Below, one piece after another: positions 871 through 37,708 of a DNA stretch of 45,167 nt; the first letter of the stretch is position 1, and the number at the start of each line of letters is the position of its first letter. The translations under genes and the position numbers were made by a program. The notes under the pieces are model-generated. The model worked only from the letters and a program-made list of their open reading frames with translations, was not told the DNA's origin and did no database searches. Origin of the DNA: Coriobacteriia bacterium (GTDB lineage Bacteria; Actinomycetota; Coriobacteriia; Anaerosomatales; SLCP01); NCBI GenBank assembly GCA_034005175.1, contig JAVEVF010000001.1, positions 1 through 45,167 of the forward strand, given 5' to 3'.

Positions 871-3273
871 TCATGGTTTGCGAGTCAGCAGGCGCATCCC
901 ATTGAAGATCACGAGCAGCGAGACACCCGTGTCTGCGAATACCGCCATCCATAGGGTCGCAACCCCTGCCATGGCGAGTGCCAACACTGCACCTTTGACT
1001 GTGACAGACAGGGCTACGTTCTGCCGGATGATGCTCACTGTGCGCCGTCCGAGCGCCAAGAATCTCGGAATCTGCATGAGGTCATCAGACATGAGAGCCA
1101 CGTCCGCTGTCTCAAGTGCCACGTCACTACCCGCAGCCCCCATGGCGATCCCGAGGTCAGACGCTGCCAGCGCAGGGGCGTCATTGATGCCATCTCCGAT
1201 CATGGCCACGGGACCGAACACCCGCCGCAGATCATCGACAGCTTCGGCCTTCTCGTGGGGCAGCAGCCGGGCCTTGTACTCGCTGACCCCTGACTGAGCT
1301 GCGATAGCGGCGGCTGTACGCTCGTTGTCGCCGGTAAGCATCACGCAGTGCTCCACGCCTCCTGCCCGCAGGCGCTCGATTGAGTCCAGCGCCTCATCCC
1401 GCACCTGATCGGCTACTCCGATCACGCCGATCGCACGCCCTTCCTCCGCAAGTACAAGGACCGTGCGCCCCTCCTCTTCGAGGCCCCTCACCACGGCGCC
1501 AGCATCGTGCTGCGCACGGTGGTCTTCTGCTGCAAACTCGAGGGTGCCCACCGCGTAGGAGACGCCATCGACGACACCTCGGACGCCACCACCCAACACG
1601 TCCTCGTAGCGTGTGACGCGCGCACGGTCACACTGCGGACCAGCTGCCTTCACCACGGCACGTGCCAGCGGGTGGTTGTTGTGTGCCTCGAGGTTGCCTG
1701 CAAGCGCGATCACGCGAGAGGGGTCTGCGCCATCGAGAGGGATGACATCGGTCACCTCAGGCCGACCGGATGTGAGCGTTCCGGTCTTGTCGAAGGCCAC
1801 CACCTTGACGCGCGCCGCCGTCTCCAGATGGATGCCGCCTTTCACCAGCACACCGTCGCGTGTCGCGCGGGTGATAGCCGAGACGATGGAGACCGGCGTC
1901 GAGATGACAAGCGCACACGGGCACGAGATCACGAGTAGGACAAGCGCACGGTACAGCCACACGTCAAACGCTCCCCACGAAGCCCCAAGCGCTGCACCCA
2001 CCAACGGAGGCACCACGGCGATGCCCGCCGCCAACACCACGACGGCAGGCGTGTAGTATCGTGCAAATCGGTCGACGAGCTGTTGTGAGGGCGCCCGTGA
2101 CCCTTGCGCCTCCTCCACAAGGTGGACGATGCGCGCGAGCGTGGACTCTGCCGCCCTCGAGGTCACGCGCACCTCAAGATGCCCGCTTGTGTTGAGCGAC
2201 CCTGCGTACACGACATCCTGAACGCTCTTGTTGACCGGCACCGACTCACCGGTGATGGGCGACTCGTCGACCGCAGACATGCCGCTTTCAACGATCCCGT
2301 CAAGCGGGATACGCTCACCTGGCCGCACGGAGATGAGCTCACCTGGCAGGACTCCAGACGCCAGGACTTCGCGCTCTCGGCCCTCGCGCGATGTGCGAGC
2401 CACTGGTGGGCTGAGCTCCATCAGGTCACGAATCGAGCGGCGTGTGCGTGCCAAGGAGCGCGATTCAAGCAGTCCGCCCAGTGAGAAGAGGAAGACCACC
2501 ACTGCCCCCTCGGCCCACTGCCCGATAGCCGCCGCACCGATCACAGCGATGGTCATGAGCACGTTCATGTCGAGCACATGCGCACGAACAGACGCCAACG
2601 CGCGGCGCAAGATAAGCGAGCCGCCGCTCGCAGTGGCAGCTGCGAACGCCATCACAGAGGCCGTGTTCGCCCACCCTGCCGCAGCCCTGCTCAGCACCCA
2701 TGCCAGCACGATGAGTGCTCCGGATACGGTGGTTGATAGCGTGTGGCCATGCACCTCCCACCAGCTAGGCGCGATGGGCACCTCGACCTCTACGACCTCA
2801 GGAGTCATCAATGGCTCGATACGATAACCGGCAGAGCGCACGATCTCCAGAGCACGAGTACGCGGATCGCTCTGAGAATCATACTCAAGCACCATGAGTC
2901 CACTTGCGAAGTTGACGTCGGCAGAGATGACTCCAGGGATACGCTTTACGGACTTGGCCACGGTCCGTGCGCAGTCGGGTCAATCCAGGCCGCTAAGCCG
3001 ATAGGACACGTGTGCCACGCCGGCACCGATCTCCAGGGCTAGTGTTTCAACCGCCGAGCGCAATACCTCCTCAGGCACCTCGTTGGGATCGTAGGTGACA
3101 GAGATCGTCCGGCCATCGGGATCAATGAGAGCGCGATGCACCCCTTCCATCGCGGTGACAGCCACGCGCAACCGCTCGTCACACTCCGCACACTGCACCT
3201 CATCGCCCAGAGGTGACGCAAGCGCGACCTCGGCGGTCTGAAGTGGTGTCATCGAAGCTGACTCGATGCTCAT
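871..3273 (-). CDS. cadA: P1B-2 type (Zn/Cd/Pb) heavy-metal translocating P-type ATPase, read through one in-frame TGA at 2980-2982 (about 800 codons)
   Basis: Track ORFs 871-2961 and 2980-3273 share one frame and are separated only by TGA plus 6 codons. Motifs: SCPCALVISTP, DKTGTLT, GDGINDAP, and TM8 WMAVFADTG as in ZntA/CadA. The N-terminus has a CAEC domain and then YRLSGLD-TGA-PDCARTVAKSVKRIPGVISADVNF, which aligns with the ZntA-type motif GMDCxxCA. The ATG at 3273 overlaps the arsR-type stop (ATGA). Confidence 0.85.
2940..2973 (-). other. candidate bacterial SECIS-like stem-loop downstream of the in-frame UGA
   Basis: RNA UGCGC-ACGGAC-[CGUGGCCAA]-GUCCGU-AAA-GCGUA. The upper stem is 6 bp (2963-2968 with 2948-2953). 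The lower stem is 5 bp (2969-2973 with 2940-2944), with a 3-nt AAA bulge between them. The stem starts 6 nt after the UGA and the 9-nt apical loop starts 18 nt after it. The loop contains GU/GG. Confidence 0.45.
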
Positions 3274-3644
3274 CGACGCTCCCCTGCGTGCGCAAGCCCT
3301 TGGGCAAGCAAGCTCTCTACGTGCGCATCGGCGAGCCGGTACACCACGTGCTTCCCGTCGCGTTTGGAGGTCACAAGACCCCTATCACGCAACAGGCGAA
3401 GCTGGTGGCTCGCGGCCGACTGCGTGACACCGATGGCAGCAGCGAGATCGCAGACACACTGGTCGCCAACGGAAAGCACCCAGAGAATGCGCAGGCGCGT
3501 GGGGTCAGAGAGCGTGTCGAAGATGCGTGCCGTCGACTCGAAATGAGCGGCATCGGGAAGCTCTTCTTCTCCATGAACAATCGGCTGCGGGCCGCTGGCC
3601 ACAGAACCGCAAGAGCGGTGAGGCTTATATGAACGTGTGCTCAT
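3270..3644 (-). CDS. ArsR/SmtB-family metalloregulator (CadC/ArsR-like, CVC site)
   Basis: FDTLSDPTRLRILWVLSVGDQCVCDLAAAIGVTQSAASHQLRLLRDRGLV is the winged-helix core, with the alpha3 CVCD metal site. I place the start at ATG 3644 (MSTRSYKPHRSCGS...) because a consensus promoter sits immediately upstream. The track start at 3749 looks over-extended. Confidence 0.85.
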   Translation of the reverse strand: MSTRSYKPHRSCGSVASGPQPIVHGEEELPDAAHFESTARIFDTLSDPTRLRILWVLSVGDQCVCDLAAAIGVTQSAASHQLRLLRDRGLVTSKRDGKHVVYRLADAHVESLLAQGLAHAGERR

Positions 3645-3655
3645 ACGTTCATATA
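3626..3655. promoter_or_regulatory. 11-8-11 perfect inverted repeat, candidate ArsR/SmtB operator
   Basis: TATATGAACGT (3626-3636), 8 nt, ACGTTCATATA (3645-3655). It overlaps the -10 element and the ATG of the regulator. The TATA..GAAC / GTTC..TATA arms resemble known SmtB/CzrA/CadC-type operators. Confidence 0.6.
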
Positions 3656-3680
3656 TATGCTGCACGGCGAGCGCTGTCAA
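3652..3680 (-). promoter_or_regulatory. sigma70-type promoter giving a probably leaderless arsR-ATPase transcript
   Basis: Minus strand reads TTGACA (3680-3675), a 17 nt spacer, TATATA (3657-3652), 7 nt, then ATG (3644). Confidence 0.6.
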
Positions 3681-3801
3681 CCTCGTCCGTGGCCACCCTG
3701 GTGAAAGAGACGTGCTCGAACCCGATGGCCGCCGTGCCCGCATGGCCAACCTGGCTCGCGTGTTCTTCCTCTGCTATGTGTCGGGCAGCGGCCTGCTCGG
3801 C

Positions 3802-4659
3802 TTACTCGGCTTCTACCGCCACAGCGATGCCGGGAGCGGGTGAGCCATGCGCATCTCCCGCATCGTCATGGCCGTGGCCGGGCTTGACCTCTAGCTCTCG
3901 GAGACCGAAGAAGTCCAGGCTGCACGGAATGTCGATGGTGAGCGAGAGATAGAAATGCGCGGTCACCATGAGGATGAAGAGCCAGTTGATGACGTAGTGG
4001 AACATGCGCATCCACCAACCCGCGAGGTCCGTGCTGCCGAGCAACGCGCCCAACCACCAGCCCACGAGCAGATCACGCGGACTGTAACCAAAGATGAATG
4101 GAACGGTGACAAGCGCGAAGCCAGTGAAGACCTGCGCAACCATCAGCACAAGGAAGATGAGGTAGACCAGCTTCTGCATCACGTTGTACTTCGCGATGTG
4201 CGGCTTGTAGTTGCTGAGGTACGCGTAGAACTTCGCCACAGCGATCAAGCTCGCCATATCCTCTCGGCCAACCGCGAATTCGCGCCAGTCCTTGCCCTTG
4301 GAGAAGAACGCGTACCAGATTCTCCAGAGCAGCGTGATCGTCACGATGACCATCGCAACGTAATGCACGTAACGCATCGCCACTCTGCCCCCATCGAAGA
4401 AGGGGAACCGAATGTACATGCCGGTGAATGCGAGGGCGAGGATGCACACCATGTGGATGAAGTGAATGACCTTGGGCTGGGCGGGAATAGCCACATCGTG
4501 ATCGGGCCACTGGCCCTCGAACCATCTCTTCTGGAACCTGCCGGTGATGATGTCGAAGGCGAAATGCACGGTGAGCGCCACAAGCATGAAGGCGTACACC
4601 ACGACAAACGCCACATCGATCCATACGTTGAGCACGGTCAAGTCCATGATGTCCCCCAT
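3802..4659 (-). CDS. polytopic membrane protein, cytochrome b561 / Ni-Fe-hydrogenase b-type cytochrome-like, with a His/Asp-rich C-terminal tail
   Basis: Several hydrophobic helices carry conserved-looking His residues (HFAFDI, HFIHMVCILA, YVHYVAMV, FHYVINWLFILMVTAHFY). The tail is KPGHGHDDAGDAHGS. The family assignment is from memory of PF01292-like proteins and is not verified. Confidence 0.5.
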   Translation of the reverse strand: MGDIMDLTVLNVWIDVAFVVVYAFMLVALTVHFAFDIITGRFQKRWFEGQWPDHDVAIPAQPKVIHFIHMVCILALAFTGMYIRFPFFDGGRVAMRYVHYVAMVIVTITLLWRIWYAFFSKGKDWREFAVGREDMASLIAVAKFYAYLSNYKPHIAKYNVMQKLVYLIFLVLMVAQVFTGFALVTVPFIFGYSPRDLLVGWWLGALLGSTDLAGWWMRMFHYVINWLFILMVTAHFYLSLTIDIPCSLDFFGLRELEVKPGHGHDDAGDAHGSPAPGIAVAVEAE

Positions 4660-16846: not shown

Positions 16847-16933
16847 GCCCGGGTGGCGGAACAGGCAGACGCGCCGGTCTCAAAAACCGGTTCCTTCACG
16901 GGAGTGCGGGTTCGATCCCCGCCCCGGGCACCA
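16847..16933 (+). tRNA. tRNA-Leu (anticodon CAA), CCA encoded
   Basis: Hand-folded. The acceptor GCCCGGG/CCCGGGC is perfect. The anticodon stem is CCGGT/ACCGG with loop CUCAAAA. There is a long variable arm (UUCCUUCACGGGAGU), T-arm GCGGG-UUCGAUC-CCCGC, discriminator A and CCA. Confidence 0.92.
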
Positions 16934-24787: not shown

Positions 24788-24924
24788 CTGAGACCCCTCC
24801 TGGTTTCGATCGGACTTCTCAGGGTGAGCGCGAACTATGCAGTGACGCTCACGATTCAGCTTAGTCGAACAGACAGGTGTTTTCTAGCGAGTAGAGCTGC
24901 CCCGCTCCCGTTGACACCTTCTGT

Positions 24925-25398
24925 CTATGACGCGATGGCCTGAAGTCGTCGCTCTTCCAGTCTCCGCTCGAATTCAGTCGGAGACAAGTCGCCGATCGAT
25001 GAATGGCGCCGGTAGGTGTTGTAGAAGCCCTCGATATAGCGGAAGAGCGCGAACCTCGCCGCGTCCCTCGTTCTGAAGGTGTGACGGTGCACGCACTCCT
25101 TCTTGATGGTCGCCATCACCGACTCGGTGACCGCATCGTCTCCCGGAGCGCCGACGCTGCCCATCGAGGCCAGGATCCCCGACTCCCGAAGCGTCCTGCC
25201 AAACGCCATGGATCGGTATTGAGCGCCGCGATCCGAGTGATGTATCAGTCCGGCAGCAGGCCTGCGCAGTATGGTCGCCATCGAGAGCGCGTCGACGACG
25301 ATGTCTGCCTTGAGGTCGTCTCGCATCGACCAGCCCACGATCTTCTTCGTGGCTGCCTCGGTGTTGTAGTCGACCGAGACACCGCCTGTCCCCCACAT
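24925..25398 (-). mobile_element. IS3-family transposase (OrfB/rve) C-terminal fragment with no N-terminal half and no OrfA
   Basis: KKIVGWSM...LIHHSDRGAQYRS...SMGSVGAPGDDAVTESVMATIKKE...YIEGFYNTYRRHSSIGDLSPTEFE carries the DDE/rve core signatures. The upstream boundary is approximate. Confidence 0.75.
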
Positions 25399-25789
25399 GC
25401 CGCCCGTTATCGACTTGAGCTGGTCGCCATCGTCATAGGTATACTCAGTGGTCCAGCTGCCTGGCCCGATCTTGAGGGTCGAGGCGACGGGCAGGTTCTT
25501 TGCGCCGTCCCATGTGAGCGCCCGTGAGACGTCGACCGCTTCAGGCACGAGAGCGAAGTGTGCCGTGCTCGTAGTGCTTCGAGTCCTCGGTGCGTTTCTC
25601 GACGATCTCGCGCTCGACGGGGGAAGGCTCGCGCTCGACGGGGGGAGCCGAGGCGGATGTCTCGACCGGGAGGTCCAGGGGCGGGGCGGCGAGAGCCGCA
25701 GGGGCTCCTTCGAGGAGCGGTGAGGTCAGAAGGACGAGAGACAGCACGCAGGAGACAGCGCGACCCAGATGCTCGCGGACCCGTTTCAC
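25399..25789 (-). pseudogene. frameshifted N-terminal remnant of a secreted YD-repeat (RHS/WapA-like) protein, fused to the IS3 fragment
   Basis: GAGAGGAGGG then GTG 25789 opens VKRVREHLGRAVSCVLSLVLLTSPLLEGAPAALAAPP (signal peptide), then ...EIVEKRTEDSKHYEHG and a stop at 25541. The adjacent frame continues ...LTWDGAKNLPV...GSWTTEYTYDDGDQLKSITGG (one YD-repeat unit) and runs directly into the transposase sequence. Confidence 0.45.
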
Positions 25790-25919
25790 GAGCCCTCCTC
25801 TCAAGCCTCCTCGCGAAGGCCCCCCGGTGCGGGAAGGCGACAGGCTCCCCGCCGAGCCGCGGATCGAGTTGTCGCATACACCATATGCGACAAGAGGCGC
25901 GAGAGGCCAGGGACCGCCG

Positions 25920-26378
25920 TCAGAGTCCGGCCTTTCGCATCCGGCGGTGCGGCGTCCCGGTTCGCTCGGAGAGGAACTCCTTGCCCTCGGCGACGAACCC
26001 CAATCGCTCGTAAAAGGCAATGACATGTGTGCGGGCGTCGAGCGTGACCTCTGTGCGCCCGGCTATGCGCGCCATGCGTACGAGCGCCTCAACGAGCGCC
26101 GCTCCGATCCCCTCGCCCTGGTGGCCCGGCGCGACCGAGACCTGCGAGATGCGCGAGTCTCCACCCTCCAGCCGGATGCGGGCGTACCCGATGACCGTTC
26201 CGCCGTCGAAGGCCGCAGCATGTCGGAAGGTTCGGGCTTCGATGTCTTCGATGAGCGAGCGAGGTAGGCCCCACTCGCGGTAAAGGGCGTCGTAGCGCAC
26301 CTCGGCCACCTCAACATGCAATGGGGAGGACGGTTCGCTCTCACGGATCTCGAACATCTTCGACAGGCCGCGTTCCAT
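25920..26378 (-). CDS. GNAT-family N-acetyltransferase
   Basis: ISQVSVAPGHQGEGIGAALVEALVRMA...AFYERLGF is the acetyl-CoA binding motif A. The start is taken at ATG 26378, which overlaps the nadE stop (TGATG). Confidence 0.8.
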   Translation of the reverse strand: MERGLSKMFEIRESEPSSPLHVEVAEVRYDALYREWGLPRSLIEDIEARTFRHAAAFDGGTVIGYARIRLEGGDSRISQVSVAPGHQGEGIGAALVEALVRMARIAGRTEVTLDARTHVIAFYERLGFVAEGKEFLSERTGTPHRRMRKAGL

Positions 26379-28253: not shown

Positions 28254-28394
28254 ATGGTACGCAAGCAGACATGCCCACGCTGCCGCGGAGACCGGTATGT
28301 CCGAGTTGAGAAGCCCACGGGCGCCAAGCACCAGAAGTGCCCCGAGTGCAATGGTTCTGGCTACAAGGTGCAGATCGTACAGCACTTCCGCTAG
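28254..28394 (+). CDS. small zinc-ribbon protein, 46 aa (missing from the ORF track because it is under 60 aa)
   Basis: GGAGGTAAGTGA then ATG. MVRKQTCPRCRGDRYVRVEKPTGAKHQKCPECNGSGYKVQIVQHFR has two CxxC pairs. The second pair is CxxCxGxG, as in DnaJ zinc fingers. Confidence 0.6.
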   Translation: MVRKQTCPRCRGDRYVRVEKPTGAKHQKCPECNGSGYKVQIVQHFR

Positions 28395-31139: not shown

Positions 31140-31290
31140 GTCGCTCTCCTCCTTCACTCCTACGTCCTGCTTCTCCGATGTGCTCGGATCTCGTGCCCAT
31201 GCGTGGCCCTGTCGCGCTTGCCCGACATGCAGGCTGCACGCGAACGCAGACATGACGCACATCCCTTCTGAGAGGGAGTGAGGAGCCCAG

Positions 31291-31328
31291 AAATACAAAT
31301 AACCCCTCATCCCTCAAGGGACGAGAGG
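31291..31328 (-). terminator. intrinsic terminator of the T-box leader
   Basis: RNA CCUCUCGUCCC-UUGA-GGGAUGAGGGG forms 11 bp including G-U pairs, followed by UUAUUUGUAUUU. The 5' arm can alternatively pair within the antiterminator that contains the T-box sequence. Confidence 0.8.
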
Positions 31329-31620
31329 TCATCTCGCGGTACCACCCTTGTTGCTCACCTCTTACGAGGTAAGCCACTTGTCCTGACGGTACGTGGACTG
31401 GACTGCGCCGCTGTAATCAATCGTGCGGCGCTGCAATCCGAATACCCGGCCCCTTGTATCGGTGGGGATCCGCCGGGACTAATGGGCGCTTTGCACCGTT
31501 GTCCTCGGTACCTCAGGGGTCCATTCCCTCCGGTCGCTCACGTCGGTTTCCACCAGCCACCGACTCTCTCCGCTTCGCGTCCGGGGTACTCCTCCCCCTC
31601 ATGGGCTCATATCCGATTGT
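31291..31620 (-). promoter_or_regulatory. T-box riboswitch leader, tryptophan specifier (UGG)
   Basis: On the minus-strand RNA, in the canonical order: AGAGAG bulge (31569-31564), distal loop GGCUGGUGGAAA (31558-31547), specifier loop GAA-UGG-A (UGG at 31523-31521), T-box sequence AACAAGGGUGGUACCGCGAG (31352-31333), then the terminator. A candidate promoter lies upstream: TTGCGG (31657-31652), an 18 nt spacer, TACACT (31633-31628). Confidence 0.85.
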
Positions 31621-31719
31621 GCGGGCGAGTGTACCACCGTGCGAAGGATTGCCGCAAGCGCGGTCGACGATGCAGGTCATCCCCAGTCTTTGCCACACGC
31701 CTGCGTGCTTGCGGTCCGC

Positions 31720-32460
31720 CTAGGGGACAGCGGGCTTGCCTCGCACCTTCTCACGCATGACCAGGCCGATGAAGCGCGCGTTTCCAACGAGATACCGGCG
31801 CCACATCCGTCTCGGCTCTTGTGCGAATCGGTAGAACCACTCAAGTCCTGAGCGCTGCATCCACGCAGGTGCTCTCCGGGTGACTCCCGCTATCACATCG
31901 AAGCTGCCCCCGACGCCCATGGCGAACACAGGACCCATATCGCGAAGATGCTCGGCGAGGAAGTACTCCTTCTTGGGGCTTGAGATGCCGACGAACACCA
32001 GCTTTGCGTGGGAGTCCTTGATTGTGCGTGCGACCTGCCAGCCGTCGTCGAAGTAGCCGTTTTGCTGCCCGGCCACCACGAGCCTGGGATGCTGTGCGGT
32101 CAATCGGGTGACACACGACTCCAGCACCTCATCCCGCGCACCGAGGAAATACACCGGCCACCCGCGCTGCTCGGCCTCGGCGAGCAACCGTGCCATGAGG
32201 TCGATGCCTGCGACTCGCTCTGGGACATCAAGGCCGAGCACCCTCCCGGCCCACACGATCGACTGCCCGTCGGCGCTTACGATGTCGCAGCCGGAAACCA
32301 CGCTGTGCAATCTGCGGTCGTCGTGCATCATGATTACCTTGCCCGCGTTAAGGACCACGTGCTGAGCGGCTTGTTGTCGCTCGGCCAGCTCGACGCATGC
32401 ATCGACCGTCTCATCCATCGTGAGCAGGTCGAGCGGCACTCCGAATATCTCACCTCTCAT
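31720..32460 (-). CDS. WecB/TagA/CpsF-family (GT26) glycosyltransferase
   Basis: IFGVPLDLLTMDETVDACVE...VVLNAGKVIMMHDD...DIVSADGQSIVWA...FLGAR...VGISSPKKE. The start is probably ATG 32460; the track start is 32481. Confidence 0.85.
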   Translation of the reverse strand: MRGEIFGVPLDLLTMDETVDACVELAERQQAAQHVVLNAGKVIMMHDDRRLHSVVSGCDIVSADGQSIVWAGRVLGLDVPERVAGIDLMARLLAEAEQRGWPVYFLGARDEVLESCVTRLTAQHPRLVVAGQQNGYFDDGWQVARTIKDSHAKLVFVGISSPKKEYFLAEHLRDMGPVFAMGVGGSFDVIAGVTRRAPAWMQRSGLEWFYRFAQEPRRMWRRYLVGNARFIGLVMREKVRGKPAVP

Positions 32461-33640
32461 AGCGAACCACTCCCGCAGCACGAGCGACAGCTTCTTCCAG
32501 AGGGTCTCGACGTCCTGCGTTCAGCAGCCCGAGGGAGGCTTCGCCGAGCGCCCAATGAGCGTCACCCCACCGCACGAAGTGCCGTTTGTCCGTCCAAGAG
32601 CGGTGTTTCTGGTAGTACGTGACGCCTGATTGCCCCTCGACAAGGTGCTTCTTGGTCCATGAGGCCACGCGCCGAGCCACATCGCCGGTGTCAAACCCCC
32701 AGCTCGCCAGTCGTGCCGCTACATCCACCGCGGTGCCCGCGCTGTGAATGTCATAGGGGTAAGGACGTGTCGGGTAGTACTTCGGCTCACCCTCGGGTCC
32801 GAAGAAATCGTGCACCCAGTGCTCGACCCCTCTCCTCAGAGCGTCGTGCACTGCTTCATCGCCGCTTGCCAGCCATACCTGAAGCAGCCCGTCGAGGTTG
32901 TACGCGGTATGGAAGTTGTCCGCCCAACCGAGCGATGCTCCTTCCCCATACGGCCATGACCCGTCGTCACGCTGCGCATGCATGCTTGTCTGCGCGCACT
33001 GAAGCCCCGTACTCACTCGGCCGGTATCCGATGCCAATGCCCCCGCCATGGCGACGAGCCCAGCGCCAAGGAAGTTGGCGTTGTGTATCAGGCGATCGCT
33101 CGTGAGCGTATACATGAACCGTGGTGTGGGAGCGCAGGTTAGCATGCGCTCTTGCAGGAAGTCGGCCGCCGCACTCATTCGCTCGAGATGCTGCGCATCA
33201 CGTGCCACAGCCGCAGCGCTGCCGAATCCCCGCCCGACGAACACGGTCGCGATAAGATTGGGAGAACCGGACGGGTAGAACGCCCAGCGCGTCTGGACAT
33301 CGAACTCGTAGCCCCACCCGCCACCGTCCATGCGCGCGATAGTCTCGTCCGCGCCAAGCTGCTCGGCCAGCAAGCGAACCTCCTCCGAGCCCCCAGTCTC
33401 ACTCGCATACCTGCTTGTTGCTGTGAGATATGCCCCCAGCGTCTTGGCCATCATGAACGCTTCCACACCAAGCACGCCAGAGAGGTCGATAGGACTTCGC
33501 TTCCGAGCCTGAATAACAGCCTGACGCATACGCGGGTGAGAGCGCACGAACGCCGGCACGCGACTACCTCGCAGCGCATCATATGGGTCTCGGCCCGAAT
33601 AGACCCCCACCTGCCGCTCGCCCCCTCGACCCATCGTCAC
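32450..33640 (-). CDS. conserved hypothetical protein of polysaccharide clusters (possibly alpha/alpha-toroid fold)
   Basis: Globular 396 aa protein with Trp-rich motifs (DGSWPYGEGASLGWADNFHTAYNLDGLLQVW). I recall similar proteins in EPS loci but cannot name a family with confidence. Confidence 0.55.
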   Translation of the reverse strand: MTMGRGGERQVGVYSGRDPYDALRGSRVPAFVRSHPRMRQAVIQARKRSPIDLSGVLGVEAFMMAKTLGAYLTATSRYASETGGSEEVRLLAEQLGADETIARMDGGGWGYEFDVQTRWAFYPSGSPNLIATVFVGRGFGSAAAVARDAQHLERMSAAADFLQERMLTCAPTPRFMYTLTSDRLIHNANFLGAGLVAMAGALASDTGRVSTGLQCAQTSMHAQRDDGSWPYGEGASLGWADNFHTAYNLDGLLQVWLASGDEAVHDALRRGVEHWVHDFFGPEGEPKYYPTRPYPYDIHSAGTAVDVAARLASWGFDTGDVARRVASWTKKHLVEGQSGVTYYQKHRSWTDKRHFVRWGDAHWALGEASLGLLNAGRRDPLEEAVARAAGVVRYER

Positions 33641-33871
33641 CTATCGATCCCTGACTACACCCAGGTTAGCGCACGCGTCTGACTTCGCACCAGCAGCCTA
33701 CCCAACCACATGCCATCTGGCTGCGCAGGACGTCCTGATACTCGCCGCCTCAACCATCGGGCGCTACACTGTAGTCCGCGTGCCTTCAGGTACTACGGCT
33801 CGTAAACCGATACTCGCTACAGGGCGACCATGACGGCGCCTCAGGACGGATAGGATAGGAGGCGGACGGCG

Positions 33872-35401
33872 TTGGAAGTCAGGCGGTACATCGATGTCAT
33901 CAAAGAGCGATGGCGCTACATTTTCGCAGCCATCGTCATCATCACCGGTTCCACCCTCCTGTTCAGTCTGGTGCAAGAGCCGGTCTACCAAGGTGAGACC
34001 AGAGTCCTCCTGACCGCGCAGAACCCAGGTACGCTCCTTGCGCAGCTACAGCTCACTGCCGAGAAAGAGGTGCAGACACAGGTCAATCTCATCACGCTGC
34101 GGCCCCTCCTCGAACAAGTCATCGAATCCCAATCGCTTGGTATCACGCCAGACGACTTGAACAAACGGGTAACGGTGACAGGCGTGGTGAACACGAGCCT
34201 GATCTCCATTCGGGTCAAGGACAACGACGCCGAGCGCGCAGCAGCCATCGCGAATGGGTTGGCAGAGGCGTACGTGAACTGGTCACGCACGCTTAAGCGC
34301 GCAAGCATCGCGGCCGCCGCAGAGCAGATCGAGATACAGCTTGCCGATGTCCAAAAGGAAGTGCAGGCGCTCGTCAACACAAAGGTCAGTGCGGATCAAG
34401 CGGCTTCACACCAGGCGCGGGTCGAGACAGCGCTCGCGCGACAAGCCGCACTCGCGGCACAGCTCGAGCAACTGAAGATCAGCGAACAGCTCGAGGTCGG
34501 ATCGGCGAGCATAGTGGCTCCAGCCACGGTTGACACAGAAGCCATCTCTCCCAAACCTACGCGCAACACGGTGCTTGCGTTCGTGGTCAGCACGCTGTTT
34601 GGTGTAGGCCTTGCGTTCATAGTCGACTACCTTGACGACACCATCGGCTCGGCGGACGAAGCAGCAGCGATTTACGGCGCGCCCATCCTCGGCCAGATCC
34701 CCGTTCTTGATTCTGCGGAGAACAGCACACGCGCTCTGGCGGTGTTCGACAGCTCACGAAGCCCGATGACAGAGTCGTATCGCCTGCTGCGCAGCAGCCT
34801 TGAGTACGTGAACTTCGAGCACGACTTCAAGACCCTCATCGTGACATCGGCTACGCCAGCAGAGGGCAAGTCAACGGTCGCTGCCAATCTCGCTGCTGTG
34901 CTGGCCAGGGCCGGGAATAAGACCGTGCTGCTCGAGGCAGACTTCGTGCGGCCCGTGACCCACGAGTTCTTTGGCGTGGGCCGTGAAGTGGGGCTCTCAA
35001 ATGTGCTCACTGGTGCTATCGATGTTCACAAAGCACTGAAACGGCCTGAAGATCTCGAGAACCTCTGGGTGCTTACGGCTGGATCCATGCCGCCGAACTC
35101 AAGTGAGCTGCTGGGCTCGGAGACGATGAAGCGCACTGTCGCCTCGCTTGCCGAATGGGCGGACTGGATCATCGTTGACACTCCCCCCAACCTGGCTGTG
35201 GCAGACACCACGGCGGTGGCCCGATGGACAGACGGCGTCATGTTGGTGATTCGGGAAGGCTCCACCACCCGCGTCGCAGCGCGGAGCAGTCTCGAAGCGC
35301 TCGGCAACATCGGGGCGAAGCTGGTAGGGGTTGTGATCACGGGCGCACAAGACGACAAGATCAGCCGCGGTTCGTACGCGAGCTACTTCCCCTCATCGTA
35401 G
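33872..35401 (+). CDS. polysaccharide co-polymerase (Wzz domain) fused to a BY-kinase (CpsD/Wze-like tyrosine autokinase)
   Basis: N-terminal RRYIDVIKERWRYIFAAIVIITG TM helix, then coiled coil and a second TM helix. C-terminal VTSATPAEGKSTVAANLA (Walker A), ADFVRP (A') and WIIVDTPP (B). The tail has SYASYF tyrosines. TTG start after GGAGG. Confidence 0.88.
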   Translation: MEVRRYIDVIKERWRYIFAAIVIITGSTLLFSLVQEPVYQGETRVLLTAQNPGTLLAQLQLTAEKEVQTQVNLITLRPLLEQVIESQSLGITPDDLNKRVTVTGVVNTSLISIRVKDNDAERAAAIANGLAEAYVNWSRTLKRASIAAAAEQIEIQLADVQKEVQALVNTKVSADQAASHQARVETALARQAALAAQLEQLKISEQLEVGSASIVAPATVDTEAISPKPTRNTVLAFVVSTLFGVGLAFIVDYLDDTIGSADEAAAIYGAPILGQIPVLDSAENSTRALAVFDSSRSPMTESYRLLRSSLEYVNFEHDFKTLIVTSATPAEGKSTVAANLAAVLARAGNKTVLLEADFVRPVTHEFFGVGREVGLSNVLTGAIDVHKALKRPEDLENLWVLTAGSMPPNSSELLGSETMKRTVASLAEWADWIIVDTPPNLAVADTTAVARWTDGVMLVIREGSTTRVAARSSLEALGNIGAKLVGVVITGAQDDKISRGSYASYFPSS

Positions 35402-35410
35402 GCACAGCCG

Positions 35411-37708
35411 ATGGTGAATCAGCCCTCTATGCAAACCAAACCCGAGGAGACGACTACCTCGCGACGCGGAGCGATGGAGCTGTTCGTCGGATCGGCAGGT
35501 CGTCTCCTCGTCAGCGGATTGGGCGCCATCGTTATCGCGGCTCTTGTCGGCCCATCCCACAAAGGAACCCTTGCCACGCTGGCAGCAGTCTCATGGATGG
35601 TCTCGGTCATTCTCGGCATGGGTATGGACGGAACCGTGCGCTACTATTTGGCCACCCGAGACTGGACGGTACAGCAGACGAACACGGTGATTGTCGGGGC
35701 GACGTCCCTGACGGCGCTGATCGCCTTCGCCGGATTCAAGGCCTTTGCAATCCTCATGCCGAATAGCATCCTCGCGGATCTCACCACCACTCAGCTCACC
35801 ATAGCCACCGCTACGAGCCTCCTTGGCCGTCTCACTGGACCGGCCCTGGTCGCGATACGCAGGTTCAGCTTCTACGCGAAGTTGGCTCTCGTGGCGGCAT
35901 TTGTGAACCCCGCTGCATTCCTCCTGCTCAGACTCGCTGGAGTAAGCCCCCTCCAGTCCGCCTTGTGGGGTTATCTCAGTGCCGATATCGCCCTTGCCCT
36001 CCCAGGGGCTTTTCGCCTCCTCGCAATCGCAGGGTGGCGGTTCAGCCGTCCGACTGACCTGCGTGGCGCCGTATGGTACAGCCTGCGCTCCTTTGGAACG
36101 AACCTGTTCAGCATGGCGAATCTACGCCTGGATGTGGTGCTGTTGCGCTCGCTTTCCACCACCGCCGCCACGGGTGCGTACTCGTTAGCAGCGCAGTTCT
36201 CCGAGGTCGTGTGGCTGGTGCCAAGCTCCGTAGGCGTGGCCTCGTTTCCTGAGATTGCTGAGAAAGGTCACGACGACGGCCAGTGGACCGCGCGCAACTC
36301 ACGCCTCGTGACTGCGCTCAGTACGCTCGCTGCCATCCTGGCGGGGGCAGCTGCGTCTGTGCTCATCGTGTTCTTCATGCCCGCGTATCGCAGCGGTCTG
36401 TCCGCATTGTGGCTCTTGATGCCCGGCACGATCGCAGTCTCCATATCGCAGATCCTGTTGCACGACCTCAACGCGCGAGGGCTTCCTGAGGCAAACACCC
36501 TCGGCGCTGCAGCGGCCCTCGTCGTCACGATCGCAGGAGGGCTCCTCCTCATCCCACCATTTGGACTGGTAGGCGCCGCGATCGTCTCGAGCATTGCCTA
36601 CAGCGTGAATGCGAGTGTCCTCGCAGCATACTTCGTAAAGACCACCTCTTGCCCGGTCAGACTCCTCCTGCCCGGATTCAAGGATCTGTGGGGGGCATTT
36701 GCGCTTGCGCTAAGGGTGGTGCGCGAATTCATGGGGAGCAAGTCTTCCGAAACGACACCAAGTGCGCCCTCGGATGCTGCACGATCTTGCAGGATGACAC
36801 CTTCATCGATGCGGCGGCGGCAGTTTGCATTCCTTCGCTGGTCGGGACTCCCCCTGCTCATGCGCGAGATCGTCCAACGCCGGCGCGTGACGATCATCAA
36901 CTACCACGAGGTCGGCCCTCAGCTGCTCGACCGGCATCTTTCAATCCTGGGCGCACGATACAACTTCATCACACTCGAAGAGTACGTAGCAGCCATGCAT
37001 GACAGCACACCTAGATCGCTGCCCCCGAAATCACTTGTCATCACCATCGATGACGGCCACAAGTCCGTGACCGGACTTGCTGATGTCTTTCGCAAACATG
37101 GTGTTCGACCCACGGTGTTCTTGTGCAGTGGTCTGATCGATACCACCCGCCGGTTCTGGTGGACGATGGTACCCGACTACAGCGAGGTTGAGCGACTCAA
37201 GGACCTGTCCAACGCCGAACGACTCGAGGCCCTCACATCATGGGGCTTCTCTGAGACCCAAGAGTACGCGGAGCGCACGTCAATCAACTGTGAAGAGATC
37301 GCGTCCACACGAGACGTGTTCGACTTCCAGGCACACTCAGTCTTTCATCCCATGCTGACGACGTGTGCTGATGAGTGCTGCCAGCGGGAGATCTACGAAT
37401 CCAAGACCGATCTTCAGCAGCTTTGCGATCTTGACGTCTGGGCATTCGCGTATCCCGGGGGCTCGTACGCTGACCGTGAGGCCGACTACGTGCGGAATGC
37501 AGGGTATGCGTGTGCTGTGACATGCGATGCTGGATTCAACGATCTCGACACCGATCCCTTTCGTCTCAGGCGGGTAGGAATGGGCGCTTGGGAAGGTGCC
37601 TGCGCGGAGACGGAGCACGACCATCTCTTAATCGACAAGAATGAGATCATTGCACGCGCATCAGGGGTCCCTGCCCTGCTCGCGCAGATGGTGTCAGAGC
37701 GCCAGTGA
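35411..37708 (+). CDS. fusion protein: Wzx-type oligosaccharide flippase (MOP superfamily, about 440 aa) plus NodB-type polysaccharide deacetylase (about 300 aa)
   Basis: The N-terminal half is polytopic with about 12 hydrophobic helices of Polysacc_synt type. The C-terminal half has VITIDDGHKSV (the TFDDG-type motif), HSVFHP and YPGGSY, typical of polysaccharide deacetylases. It is a single uninterrupted ORF. Confidence 0.8.
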   Translation: MVNQPSMQTKPEETTTSRRGAMELFVGSAGRLLVSGLGAIVIAALVGPSHKGTLATLAAVSWMVSVILGMGMDGTVRYYLATRDWTVQQTNTVIVGATSLTALIAFAGFKAFAILMPNSILADLTTTQLTIATATSLLGRLTGPALVAIRRFSFYAKLALVAAFVNPAAFLLLRLAGVSPLQSALWGYLSADIALALPGAFRLLAIAGWRFSRPTDLRGAVWYSLRSFGTNLFSMANLRLDVVLLRSLSTTAATGAYSLAAQFSEVVWLVPSSVGVASFPEIAEKGHDDGQWTARNSRLVTALSTLAAILAGAAASVLIVFFMPAYRSGLSALWLLMPGTIAVSISQILLHDLNARGLPEANTLGAAAALVVTIAGGLLLIPPFGLVGAAIVSSIAYSVNASVLAAYFVKTTSCPVRLLLPGFKDLWGAFALALRVVREFMGSKSSETTPSAPSDAARSCRMTPSSMRRRQFAFLRWSGLPLLMREIVQRRRVTIINYHEVGPQLLDRHLSILGARYNFITLEEYVAAMHDSTPRSLPPKSLVITIDDGHKSVTGLADVFRKHGVRPTVFLCSGLIDTTRRFWWTMVPDYSEVERLKDLSNAERLEALTSWGFSETQEYAERTSINCEEIASTRDVFDFQAHSVFHPMLTTCADECCQREIYESKTDLQQLCDLDVWAFAYPGGSYADREADYVRNAGYACAVTCDAGFNDLDTDPFRLRRVGMGAWEGACAETEHDHLLIDKNEIIARASGVPALLAQMVSERQ

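Follow-up and report, generated by a model that had tools for sequence, protein, structure and literature searches.

On the minus strand of the window, as the whole stretch of 45,167 nt analyzed here is called, a first-pass annotation had recognized a complete T-box riboswitch of the terminator type at 31291-31620, specific for tRNA-Trp and placed in an Actinomycetota-like context ahead of two trpB paralogues. The locus raises the question of whether a leader of this kind is present in such a genome and, if so, how it came to stand in front of only two trp genes. Covariance-model and gene matches, the fold, and related leaders all bear the proposal out: the element is very probably a class I (transcriptional) T-box riboswitch specific for tRNA-Trp, with a leader inherited from an ancestor that had a full trp operon. 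It is ordinary in kind and involves no new mechanism.

Identity and fold of the leader

RF00230, the Rfam T-box covariance model, matches window positions 31611-31314 (minus strand) at 95.4 bits with an E-value of 8e-20, and the alignment is full length, spanning model positions 1-219 of 219. The margin over the gathering score of 93 bits is small, at 2.4 bits. This leader was the sole cis-regulatory RNA called in the 45-kb window by an Rfam scan, and the transcript leader, estimated to run from ~31621 to 31286, agrees with the range originally proposed. The hallmark elements listed by the first-pass annotation were all recovered in order on the minus strand, each where it had been placed, in the RF00230 alignment, and every class I feature of RF00230 that is open to computational test is present in the window leader.

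To assess the fold, 14 homologous leaders were aligned with MAFFT, the pairs that Rfam assigns to the window leader were carried over to this alignment, and the pairs were counted. Standard pairs filled 93.0% of cells, compared with 85.1% in shuffles and 36-54% with slid partners, and 19 pairs had changes on both sides; none of 500 shuffles reached any of five measures, a count in which the structure was taken from one of the aligned sequences, the window leader. Compensatory pairs were concentrated in Stem I (eight, with helices 1-3 and 5 being 92-100% paired), Stem II (three, with 93.9% paired), and Stem III (six of seven pairs, with 96.9% paired). A three-pair segment in the middle of Stem I, helix 4, was only 24% paired, and the consensus pairing fails there in this clade.

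Stem I occupies 31605-31511 according to the pairs of the Rfam alignment and comprises a K-turn at its base (AUGA...UGAG), the specifier loop, the AG bulge, and the distal loop. The AG bulge, GGAGAGAG, is at roughly 31572-31565 on the minus strand, and GGCUGGUGGAA, at 31558-31548 on the same strand, is the distal loop. Among the 14 leaders, AGAGAG is invariant and GGUGGAA nearly invariant, and the two elements probably form the platform for the tRNA elbow. The specifier loop reads GAA-UGG-A, with the tryptophan codon UGG (31523-31521) in its canonical place at the 3′ end of the loop and the purine A following at 31520. All 14 leaders have GAAUGG(A/G) without exception, as do the related loci L005, L013, L033, and L057, which upholds the reading of UGG as a specifier for tryptophan seated in the Stem I specifier loop.

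Stem II (31508-31473) is followed by the Stem IIA/B pseudoknot (31472-31450), in which the loop CCCC pairs with GGGG by the Rfam pairs, the two together covering 31508-31450. The CCCC/GGGG pairing is present and invariant in the 14 leaders, an invariance that carries no weight, as a motif from this region was the search key for the metagenome leaders and the set was partly selected by it. Stem III lies at 31374-31353. The T-box sequence, AACAAGGGUGGUACCGCGAG, is at 31352-31333 (minus strand), and the antiterminator, at 31348-31317 by the Rfam pairs, presents the T-box bulge UGGUACC (31344-31338), in which U at 31341 is the base positioned to pair with the tRNA discriminator. The nine pairs of the antiterminator are 100% paired in the 14 leaders and nearly invariant, leaving covariation silent there.

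Between Stem IIA/B and Stem III, outside the Rfam consensus, the window leader has an extra hairpin (31446-31388) closed by GGUAU/GUACC. Rfam treats this region as an insertion of ~70 nt at a place where its consensus is an unpaired linker, and it is because the model skips the hairpin that RF00230 scores fall near the threshold. Folded alone, the hairpin has an energy of -27.0 kcal/mol, and an equivalent with the same closing helix and a distal part variable in length and sequence occurs in 15 of 17 related leaders, including L013 and L057 from Chloroflexota. As a feature common to the clade and to some Chloroflexota Trp T-boxes, it may be of interest for structural work on T-boxes.

Terminator, promoter, and discriminator pairing

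A hairpin of 17 pairs (31334-31297) followed by GUAUUUCUGG was identified by terminator scan as an intrinsic terminator, which with its U-rich tail spans 31334-31286 on the minus strand. Its energy of -27.2 kcal/mol confirms the strong terminator that had been described, with the qualification that the U tail, UUAUUUGUAUUU, is interrupted. In a scan of 4 kb, five terminator sites were called against 1.5 expected from shuffles, and the T-box terminator was the strongest of them. Terminator and antiterminator share the strand 31334-31317, and the terminator is the more stable structure (-27.2 kcal/mol compared with -8.7 kcal/mol for the consensus structure of the antiterminator and -13.0 kcal/mol for its best fold), which is the usual energy relationship in T-boxes. 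A comparable hairpin and U tract were found in 13 of 14 leaders, L082 being left out as the wrong region had been excised. This count comes from folding each sequence separately, which was used in place of a column-based pair count, where differing loop lengths misalign the 3′ strand.

Upstream of the leader, a putative -35 hexamer (TTGCGG, 31657-31652) and a putative -10 hexamer (TACACT, 31633-31628) can be read on the minus strand, with transcription expected to start at ~31622-31620. In all 14 leaders, 17-19 nt separate a TTGCGC/TTGACA-like hexamer from a TAnnnT hexamer downstream of it; L003, L004, and L090 share the exact TACACT of the window, and the remaining leaders have TAnnnT. A strict sigma-70 scan did not call the -35 hexamer TTGCGG.

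The first-pass annotation had counted as an oddity that the discriminator-pairing base is U, so that pairing with a tRNA-Trp carrying G73 would be a G-U wobble. The U at 31341 is present as described, but it is not odd: U is found opposite G73 in 46% of Trp T-boxes in TBDB (PMC7778990), and in the clade the variable base of UGGN is C in 11 of 14 leaders and U in three (the window, L081, and L091), never A or G. The UGGU of the window is one C-to-U transition away from the UGGC of its relatives. Since G73 alone among discriminators can pair with C as well as with U, the restriction to these two bases fits G73, which is the predicted discriminator of the host tRNA-Trp. No tRNA-Trp gene was found in the 45-kb window, in 80 genome loci, or in 11 metagenome loci, the last containing only a tRNA-Thr.

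Host and related leaders

Among representative genomes of 185,579 species, the closest TrpB2 sequences, at 87-91% identity, belong to metagenome-assembled genomes labelled Anaerosomatales, Coriobacteriia, or Actinomycetota, Anaerosomatales being an order within Coriobacteriia, which is a class of the phylum Actinomycetota. The next matches, at 60-66%, are from Chloroflexota, Clostridia, Proteobacteria, and other Actinomycetota. Because its closest TrpB2 relatives are Anaerosomatales and Coriobacteriia genomes, the host is placed, by sequence, in Actinomycetota as a Coriobacteriia-like organism.

The window leader is 82% identical to that of L003 and 78% identical to that of L004, both of which head a full trp operon. 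A survey of related genomes found the same leader in at least 13 other contigs of an Anaerosomatales/Coriobacteriia-like clade, normally before the full trp operon. A Trp T-box ahead of trpB paralogues had been thought unusual for such a genome; the leader itself is evidently not isolated, and the unusual trait is the reduced operon behind it. Besides L003 and L004, these contigs include 11 from metagenomes that were retrieved by exact matches to 23 nt of the pseudoknot region, which is thereby biased. All 11 of their leaders match RF00230 at full length with 72-102 bits, and seven of them (72-92 bits) score under the gathering threshold. With more than half of the metagenome leaders of the clade below the Rfam threshold, routine annotation will miss most of them. 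Together these leaders document a family of terminator-type Trp T-boxes in a Coriobacteriia-like branch of Actinomycetota.

One related locus, L005, is labelled Eubacteriales, and horizontal transfer from Firmicutes was considered as an explanation and rejected. L005 has the identical operon order, including nadE, and 64.5% GC, which makes a wrong label on a member of this clade the likelier explanation.

Reduction of the trp operon

In the relatives (L001, L002, L003, L004, L005, and L086), the leader is followed by trpE-trpGD-trpC-trpB2-trpF-trpB1-trpA and then by a small convergent gene and nadE; in L085, the leader stands directly before trpB2. The order in the window is T-box-trpB2-trpB1, and five of the seven operon genes have been lost. 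The specifier amino acid matches the regulated genes in both situations, UGG (Trp) preceding trpB2 and trpB1 in the window and the full trp operon in the relatives. By this comparison, the leader was probably inherited from an Anaerosomatales/Coriobacteriia-like ancestor with the arrangement trpE-trpGD-trpC-trpB2-trpF-trpB1-trpA.

Collinearity with L003 extends over the leader (L003 74-437, window 31639-31274), trpB2 with the first ~50 nt of trpF (L003 4524-5955, window 31153-29720), trpB1 (L003 6527-7788, window 29712-28445), the region after trpA (L003 8648-8890, window 28398-28158), and nadE onwards (L003 9246-11251, window 27974-25969). What the window lacks relative to L003 is precisely trpE-trpGD-trpC, most of trpF except its ends, and trpA, which leaves three gaps at gene boundaries and amounts to three deletions: trpE/GD/C, trpF, and trpA. 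No trace of trpE, trpGD, trpC, or trpA was detected in the 45-kb window (tblastn E >0.4, the best match to trpA anywhere in the window having E 0.43), and trpF persists only as a remnant. For the upstream glycosyltransferase, no synteny with the relatives was found.

The leader and trpB2 blocks are separated in the window by a spacer of 120 nt (31273-31154, minus strand), likely the scar of the trpE-trpGD-trpC deletion. Homology to the leaders of the relatives stops at 31274 and restarts 14 nt before the trpB2 start. The spacer has no detectable homologue, and compared with the trpE 5′ and trpC 3′ regions of the relatives it scores no better than shuffles. The first-pass annotation had remarked on the ~150 nt between terminator and trpB2 as a second oddity; the gap is real, and its sequence is most likely a deletion scar, an unalignable junction joined to the retained ribosome-binding site of trpB2 (GGAGG) at the place where trpE-trpGD-trpC are missing.

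The first gene after the leader, trpB2 (31139-29793, minus strand), encodes a TrpB-like PLP enzyme of 448 aa (NF009057, 715.7 bits) that is 91% identical to that of L003 over its full length. The last gene of the reduced operon, trpB1 (29689-28445, minus strand), encodes a canonical tryptophan synthase beta subunit of 414 aa (TIGR00263, 583.4 bits) with 88.6% identity to L003, and no trpA follows it. Neither gene has internal stop codons, and dN/dS relative to the relatives is 0.05-0.10 for trpB2 and 0.07-0.08 for trpB1, values averaged over the whole divergence that cannot show selection continuing after the deletions. Between the two genes, the trpF remnant (29769-29686, minus strand) is an in-frame stretch of 27 codons, composed of the first ~18 and last ~8, as seen from its translation, from alignment to both ends of L003 trpF, and from a tblastn match to trpF residues 1-22. 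Its stop codon overlaps the trpB1 start (GTGA). The in-frame remnant and the preserved GTGA overlap argue for real deletions under selection for trpB1 expression and against misassembly. The window thus shows reductive evolution in progress: five genes are gone, and what has been kept is the sensor RNA with its promoter, the two TrpB paralogues, and even the translational-coupling junction. Look-ups by exact protein sequence had no record of TrpB2 or TrpB1 and found the aldolase and NadE only on short Logan contigs from SRR25572339, none of which extends to the trp locus, so that no second assembly of this locus came to light.

Proposed mechanism and alternative explanations

The sequences establish membership in the RF00230 family, the fold, the specifier, the alternative helices, the gene content with its deletions, and the intactness of the coding sequences; tRNA binding, the outcome of antitermination, the transcription start, and the part played by the module in indole salvage are predictions from sequence. 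Transcription would start at the conserved promoter near 31621, after which Stem I would offer its UGG specifier to the anticodon of tRNA-Trp and the distal platform of AG bulge and loop would touch the tRNA elbow. If the tRNA-Trp is uncharged, its free NCCA end would pair with the UGGU bulge and stabilize an antiterminator that is otherwise weak (about -9 to -13 kcal/mol), allowing RNA polymerase to proceed into trpB2-trpB1. With charged tRNA-Trp, the terminator (-27 kcal/mol) would form and transcription would stop near 31290.

After the deletions, the T-box would control only the final step of tryptophan synthesis, with two enzymes that make tryptophan from indole and serine. TrpB2 paralogues able to act independently of TrpA have been linked to indole salvage (Hiyama et al. 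2014, cited in PMC11085991). It is conceivable, although somewhat short of probable, that the genome belongs to a tryptophan auxotroph left with nothing but an indole-to-tryptophan salvage module, TrpB2 and a TrpB1 lacking TrpA, in which the ancestral T-box has been kept and salvage is turned on by uncharged tRNA-Trp. If so, this would be a riboswitch that has outlived its biosynthetic operon and been re-used for salvage, and the organism would depend on indole from neighboring organisms. From the reduced operon one can predict that this uncultured anaerobe is a tryptophan auxotroph dependent on indole.

The scope of the gene loss is that of the visible 45 kb of the genome, and trpE/G/D/C/F/A could lie elsewhere. 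The reduced gene order might be an artifact of assembly or binning, or the missing genes might be located at another site, so that the T-box would preside over part of a complete pathway, as it does in Dehalococcoides. There are indeed trp regulons that are split and in which a trpB-like gene has a T-box of its own (PMC2494555; also L013 and L033), and the arrangement of L085, with its leader directly before trpB2, could be read in the same way. The three separate gaps, however, fall exactly at gene boundaries, the in-frame trpF remnant keeps the overlap with the trpB1 start, and the full order is kept in five related genome loci and in L086, such that moving five genes out of three positions would be an uneconomical assumption; this explanation is accordingly unlikely. 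A further possibility is that the leader is itself a relic, persisting by inertia after operon decay with its regulatory function lost, and that the scar and the replacement of C by U opposite the discriminator are early signs of decay. The loss of five of seven operon genes, the presence of UGGU instead of UGGC, which the window shares with just two of the other 13 clade members, and the 120 nt after the terminator that cannot be aligned would all accord with such a history. It is nevertheless quite improbable: no conserved T-box element is damaged and the RF00230 match exceeds the threshold, differences from the relatives in Stems I, II, and III preserve pairing, the promoter, terminator, and trpB2 ribosome-binding site are retained, U at the discriminator-pairing position is common in working Trp T-boxes (PMC7778990), and trpB2 and trpB1 are intact with dN/dS below 0.1.

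The phylum of the host also invites the idea that the leader is a class II T-box of the actinobacterial ileS type, acting on translation through a 3′ hairpin that would hide the ribosome-binding site, and the first T-boxes described in Actinomycetota were in fact translational ileS leaders (PMC1262725). The window leader, by comparison, has a full-length Stem I with AG bulge and distal loop, its hairpin is followed by a U-rich tract, and the same hairpin in the relatives precedes trpE at a distance. The defining class II feature, a 3′ helix that sequesters the Shine-Dalgarno sequence, is absent: the trpB2 GGAGG and start codon are outside the hairpin, ~145-160 nt downstream of it. Because the ribosome-binding site lies so far beyond the hairpin, the translational mode is excluded in practice, with a negligible probability left to it. 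A class I T-box acting on transcription and carried over from a complete trp operon is therefore the preferred reading of this leader.

Comparison with known T-boxes

The class I T-boxes of Firmicutes gathered in RF00230 have their elements arranged as in the window leader, with the K-turn, the specifier followed by a purine, the AG bulge and distal loop, Stem II, the Stem IIA/B pseudoknot, Stem III, the UGGNACC bulge, and the competing terminator. Examples in that phylum include the tyrS and glyQS leaders of Bacillus subtilis and the Trp T-boxes before trpE or rtpA. The window leader differs from these in its host, a high-GC, Coriobacteriia-like actinobacterium, and in the extra hairpin between Stem IIA/B and Stem III. 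Many trp operons of Firmicutes carry tandem T-boxes, whereas the window has a single T-box and an operon reduced to trpB2-trpB1.

Dehalococcoides offers a precedent for a T-box placed immediately before a trpB-like gene: Trp T-boxes have been reported there in front of both trpE and such a gene (Wels et al. 2008, PMC2494555). The Trp T-boxes of Chloroflexota are like that of the window in having a Trp specifier and a trpB-like (TrpB2) gene directly behind the leader, as in L013 and L033, where leaders with GAAUGG and UGGC are immediately upstream of TrpB2, and L013 and L057 also share with the window the extra GGGUA...UACC hairpin. Chloroflexota are nonetheless another phylum, and the window T-box came to adjoin trpB2 secondarily, through the trpE-trpGD-trpC deletion; collinearity with L003 gives no sign that the window T-box began as a separate regulon.

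Within Actinomycetota, the ileS T-boxes of Mycobacterium and Streptomyces share with the window leader the phylum and the principle of sensing uncharged tRNA. They are Ile-specific and sequester the Shine-Dalgarno sequence, in contrast to the full-length Stem I, terminator output, and Trp specifier of the window. Sherwood and colleagues are said to have described, in 2015, a shortened Stem I for the actinobacterial ileS T-boxes. The statement in the first-pass annotation that actinobacterial T-boxes are mainly ileS leaders acting on translation agrees with an early survey of Actinobacteria (Seliverstov et al. 2005, PMC1262725), in which all T-boxes were translational ileS leaders and there were "no classical T-boxes". 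A transcription-attenuating T-box is known from the his operon of Corynebacterium glutamicum (cited in PMC9413887). It is a precedent for such control over an amino-acid biosynthesis operon in Actinomycetota and differs from the window leader in amino acid, class, and operon. The literature searched, a body from which key reviews and the TBDB tables were absent, yielded no description of Trp T-boxes in Coriobacteriia. That literature describes mainly translational ileS T-boxes for Actinomycetota, and to these the window adds a Trp T-box of the terminator type.

Surroundings of the shrunken trp operon

Compared with L003, the related locus with full operon order used as the collinear reference, the window carries about 1.2 kb of additional DNA at 24802-25968, between nadE/acetyltransferase and the aldolase gene. 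Within it, a minus-strand ORF (24925-25548) codes for the C-terminal portion of an IS3-family transposase, with rve domains and an NF033516 score of 145.9 bits, below the cutoff of 160. This extra segment with its transposase part is a sign of local rearrangement close to the shrunken trp operon. An exopolysaccharide-type locus occupies 31720-37708, on the upstream side of the leader, with genes for a WecB/TagA/CpsF glycosyltransferase, a Wzz/tyrosine-kinase-like protein, and a polysaccharide deacetylase. No counterpart of the glycosyltransferase and its adjoining ORF was found in the related loci, and thus the trp locus is bounded differently from its relatives on this side too. The sole tRNA in the window is a plus-strand tRNA-Leu (16847-16933), with anticodon CAA and a long variable arm.

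Public reads exist from the window's organism, since sequences identical to its aldolase and NadE occur on two short Logan contigs of run SRR25572339, L092 and L093.

Related leaders in other gene settings and assemblies

Homologous leaders on metagenome contigs occur in other gene settings as well. On contig L084, a clade-type Trp T-box leader (464-762) is followed on the plus strand not by a trp gene but by a gene for a FolE2-type GTP cyclohydrolase I (778-1443). The FolE2 gene looks 5′-truncated because the profile match begins only at position 52 of 260, and the arrangement could mark the junction of a rearrangement or stem from a chimeric contig. Contig L085 represents a more distant clade member, with a TrpB2 67% identical, and has the leader (2900-3176) directly ahead of trpB2 (3300-3829), which lies about 90 nt past the terminator. 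The contig stops within trpB2, and the adjacency could reflect either an operon reduction that occurred independently or a trpB2 regulon of its own.

A locus labelled as uncultured Eubacteriales (L005, CAYMAN010000007.1) has the same leader and operon order (trpE-GD-C-B2-F-B1-A, then nadE) as Anaerosomatales-type loci, and resembles them in its GC content of 64.5%. Either the taxonomic label of this metagenome-assembled genome is probably wrong, or the entire locus was transferred.

Rfam-based annotation under-calls the T-boxes of this clade: RF00230 scores are 72-92 bits, under the gathering score of 93, in seven of the 11 metagenome homologues, and at that threshold RF00230 gave no report for the leaders of related loci L003 and L004.

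A small zinc-ribbon ORF downstream of the operon

A plus-strand ORF of 46 amino acids (28254-28394) faces the end of the trp operon in convergent orientation and encodes a zinc ribbon of the pattern CxxC...CxxCxGxG, and the DNA of this interval is about 81% identical to that of related loci L001 and L003. The ORF product weakly resembles the DnaJ cysteine-rich domain (E 1.9e-5) and Anti-TRAP (E 7.6e-3), in both cases below Pfam cutoffs, and this likeness is probably just that of a common zinc-ribbon fold.
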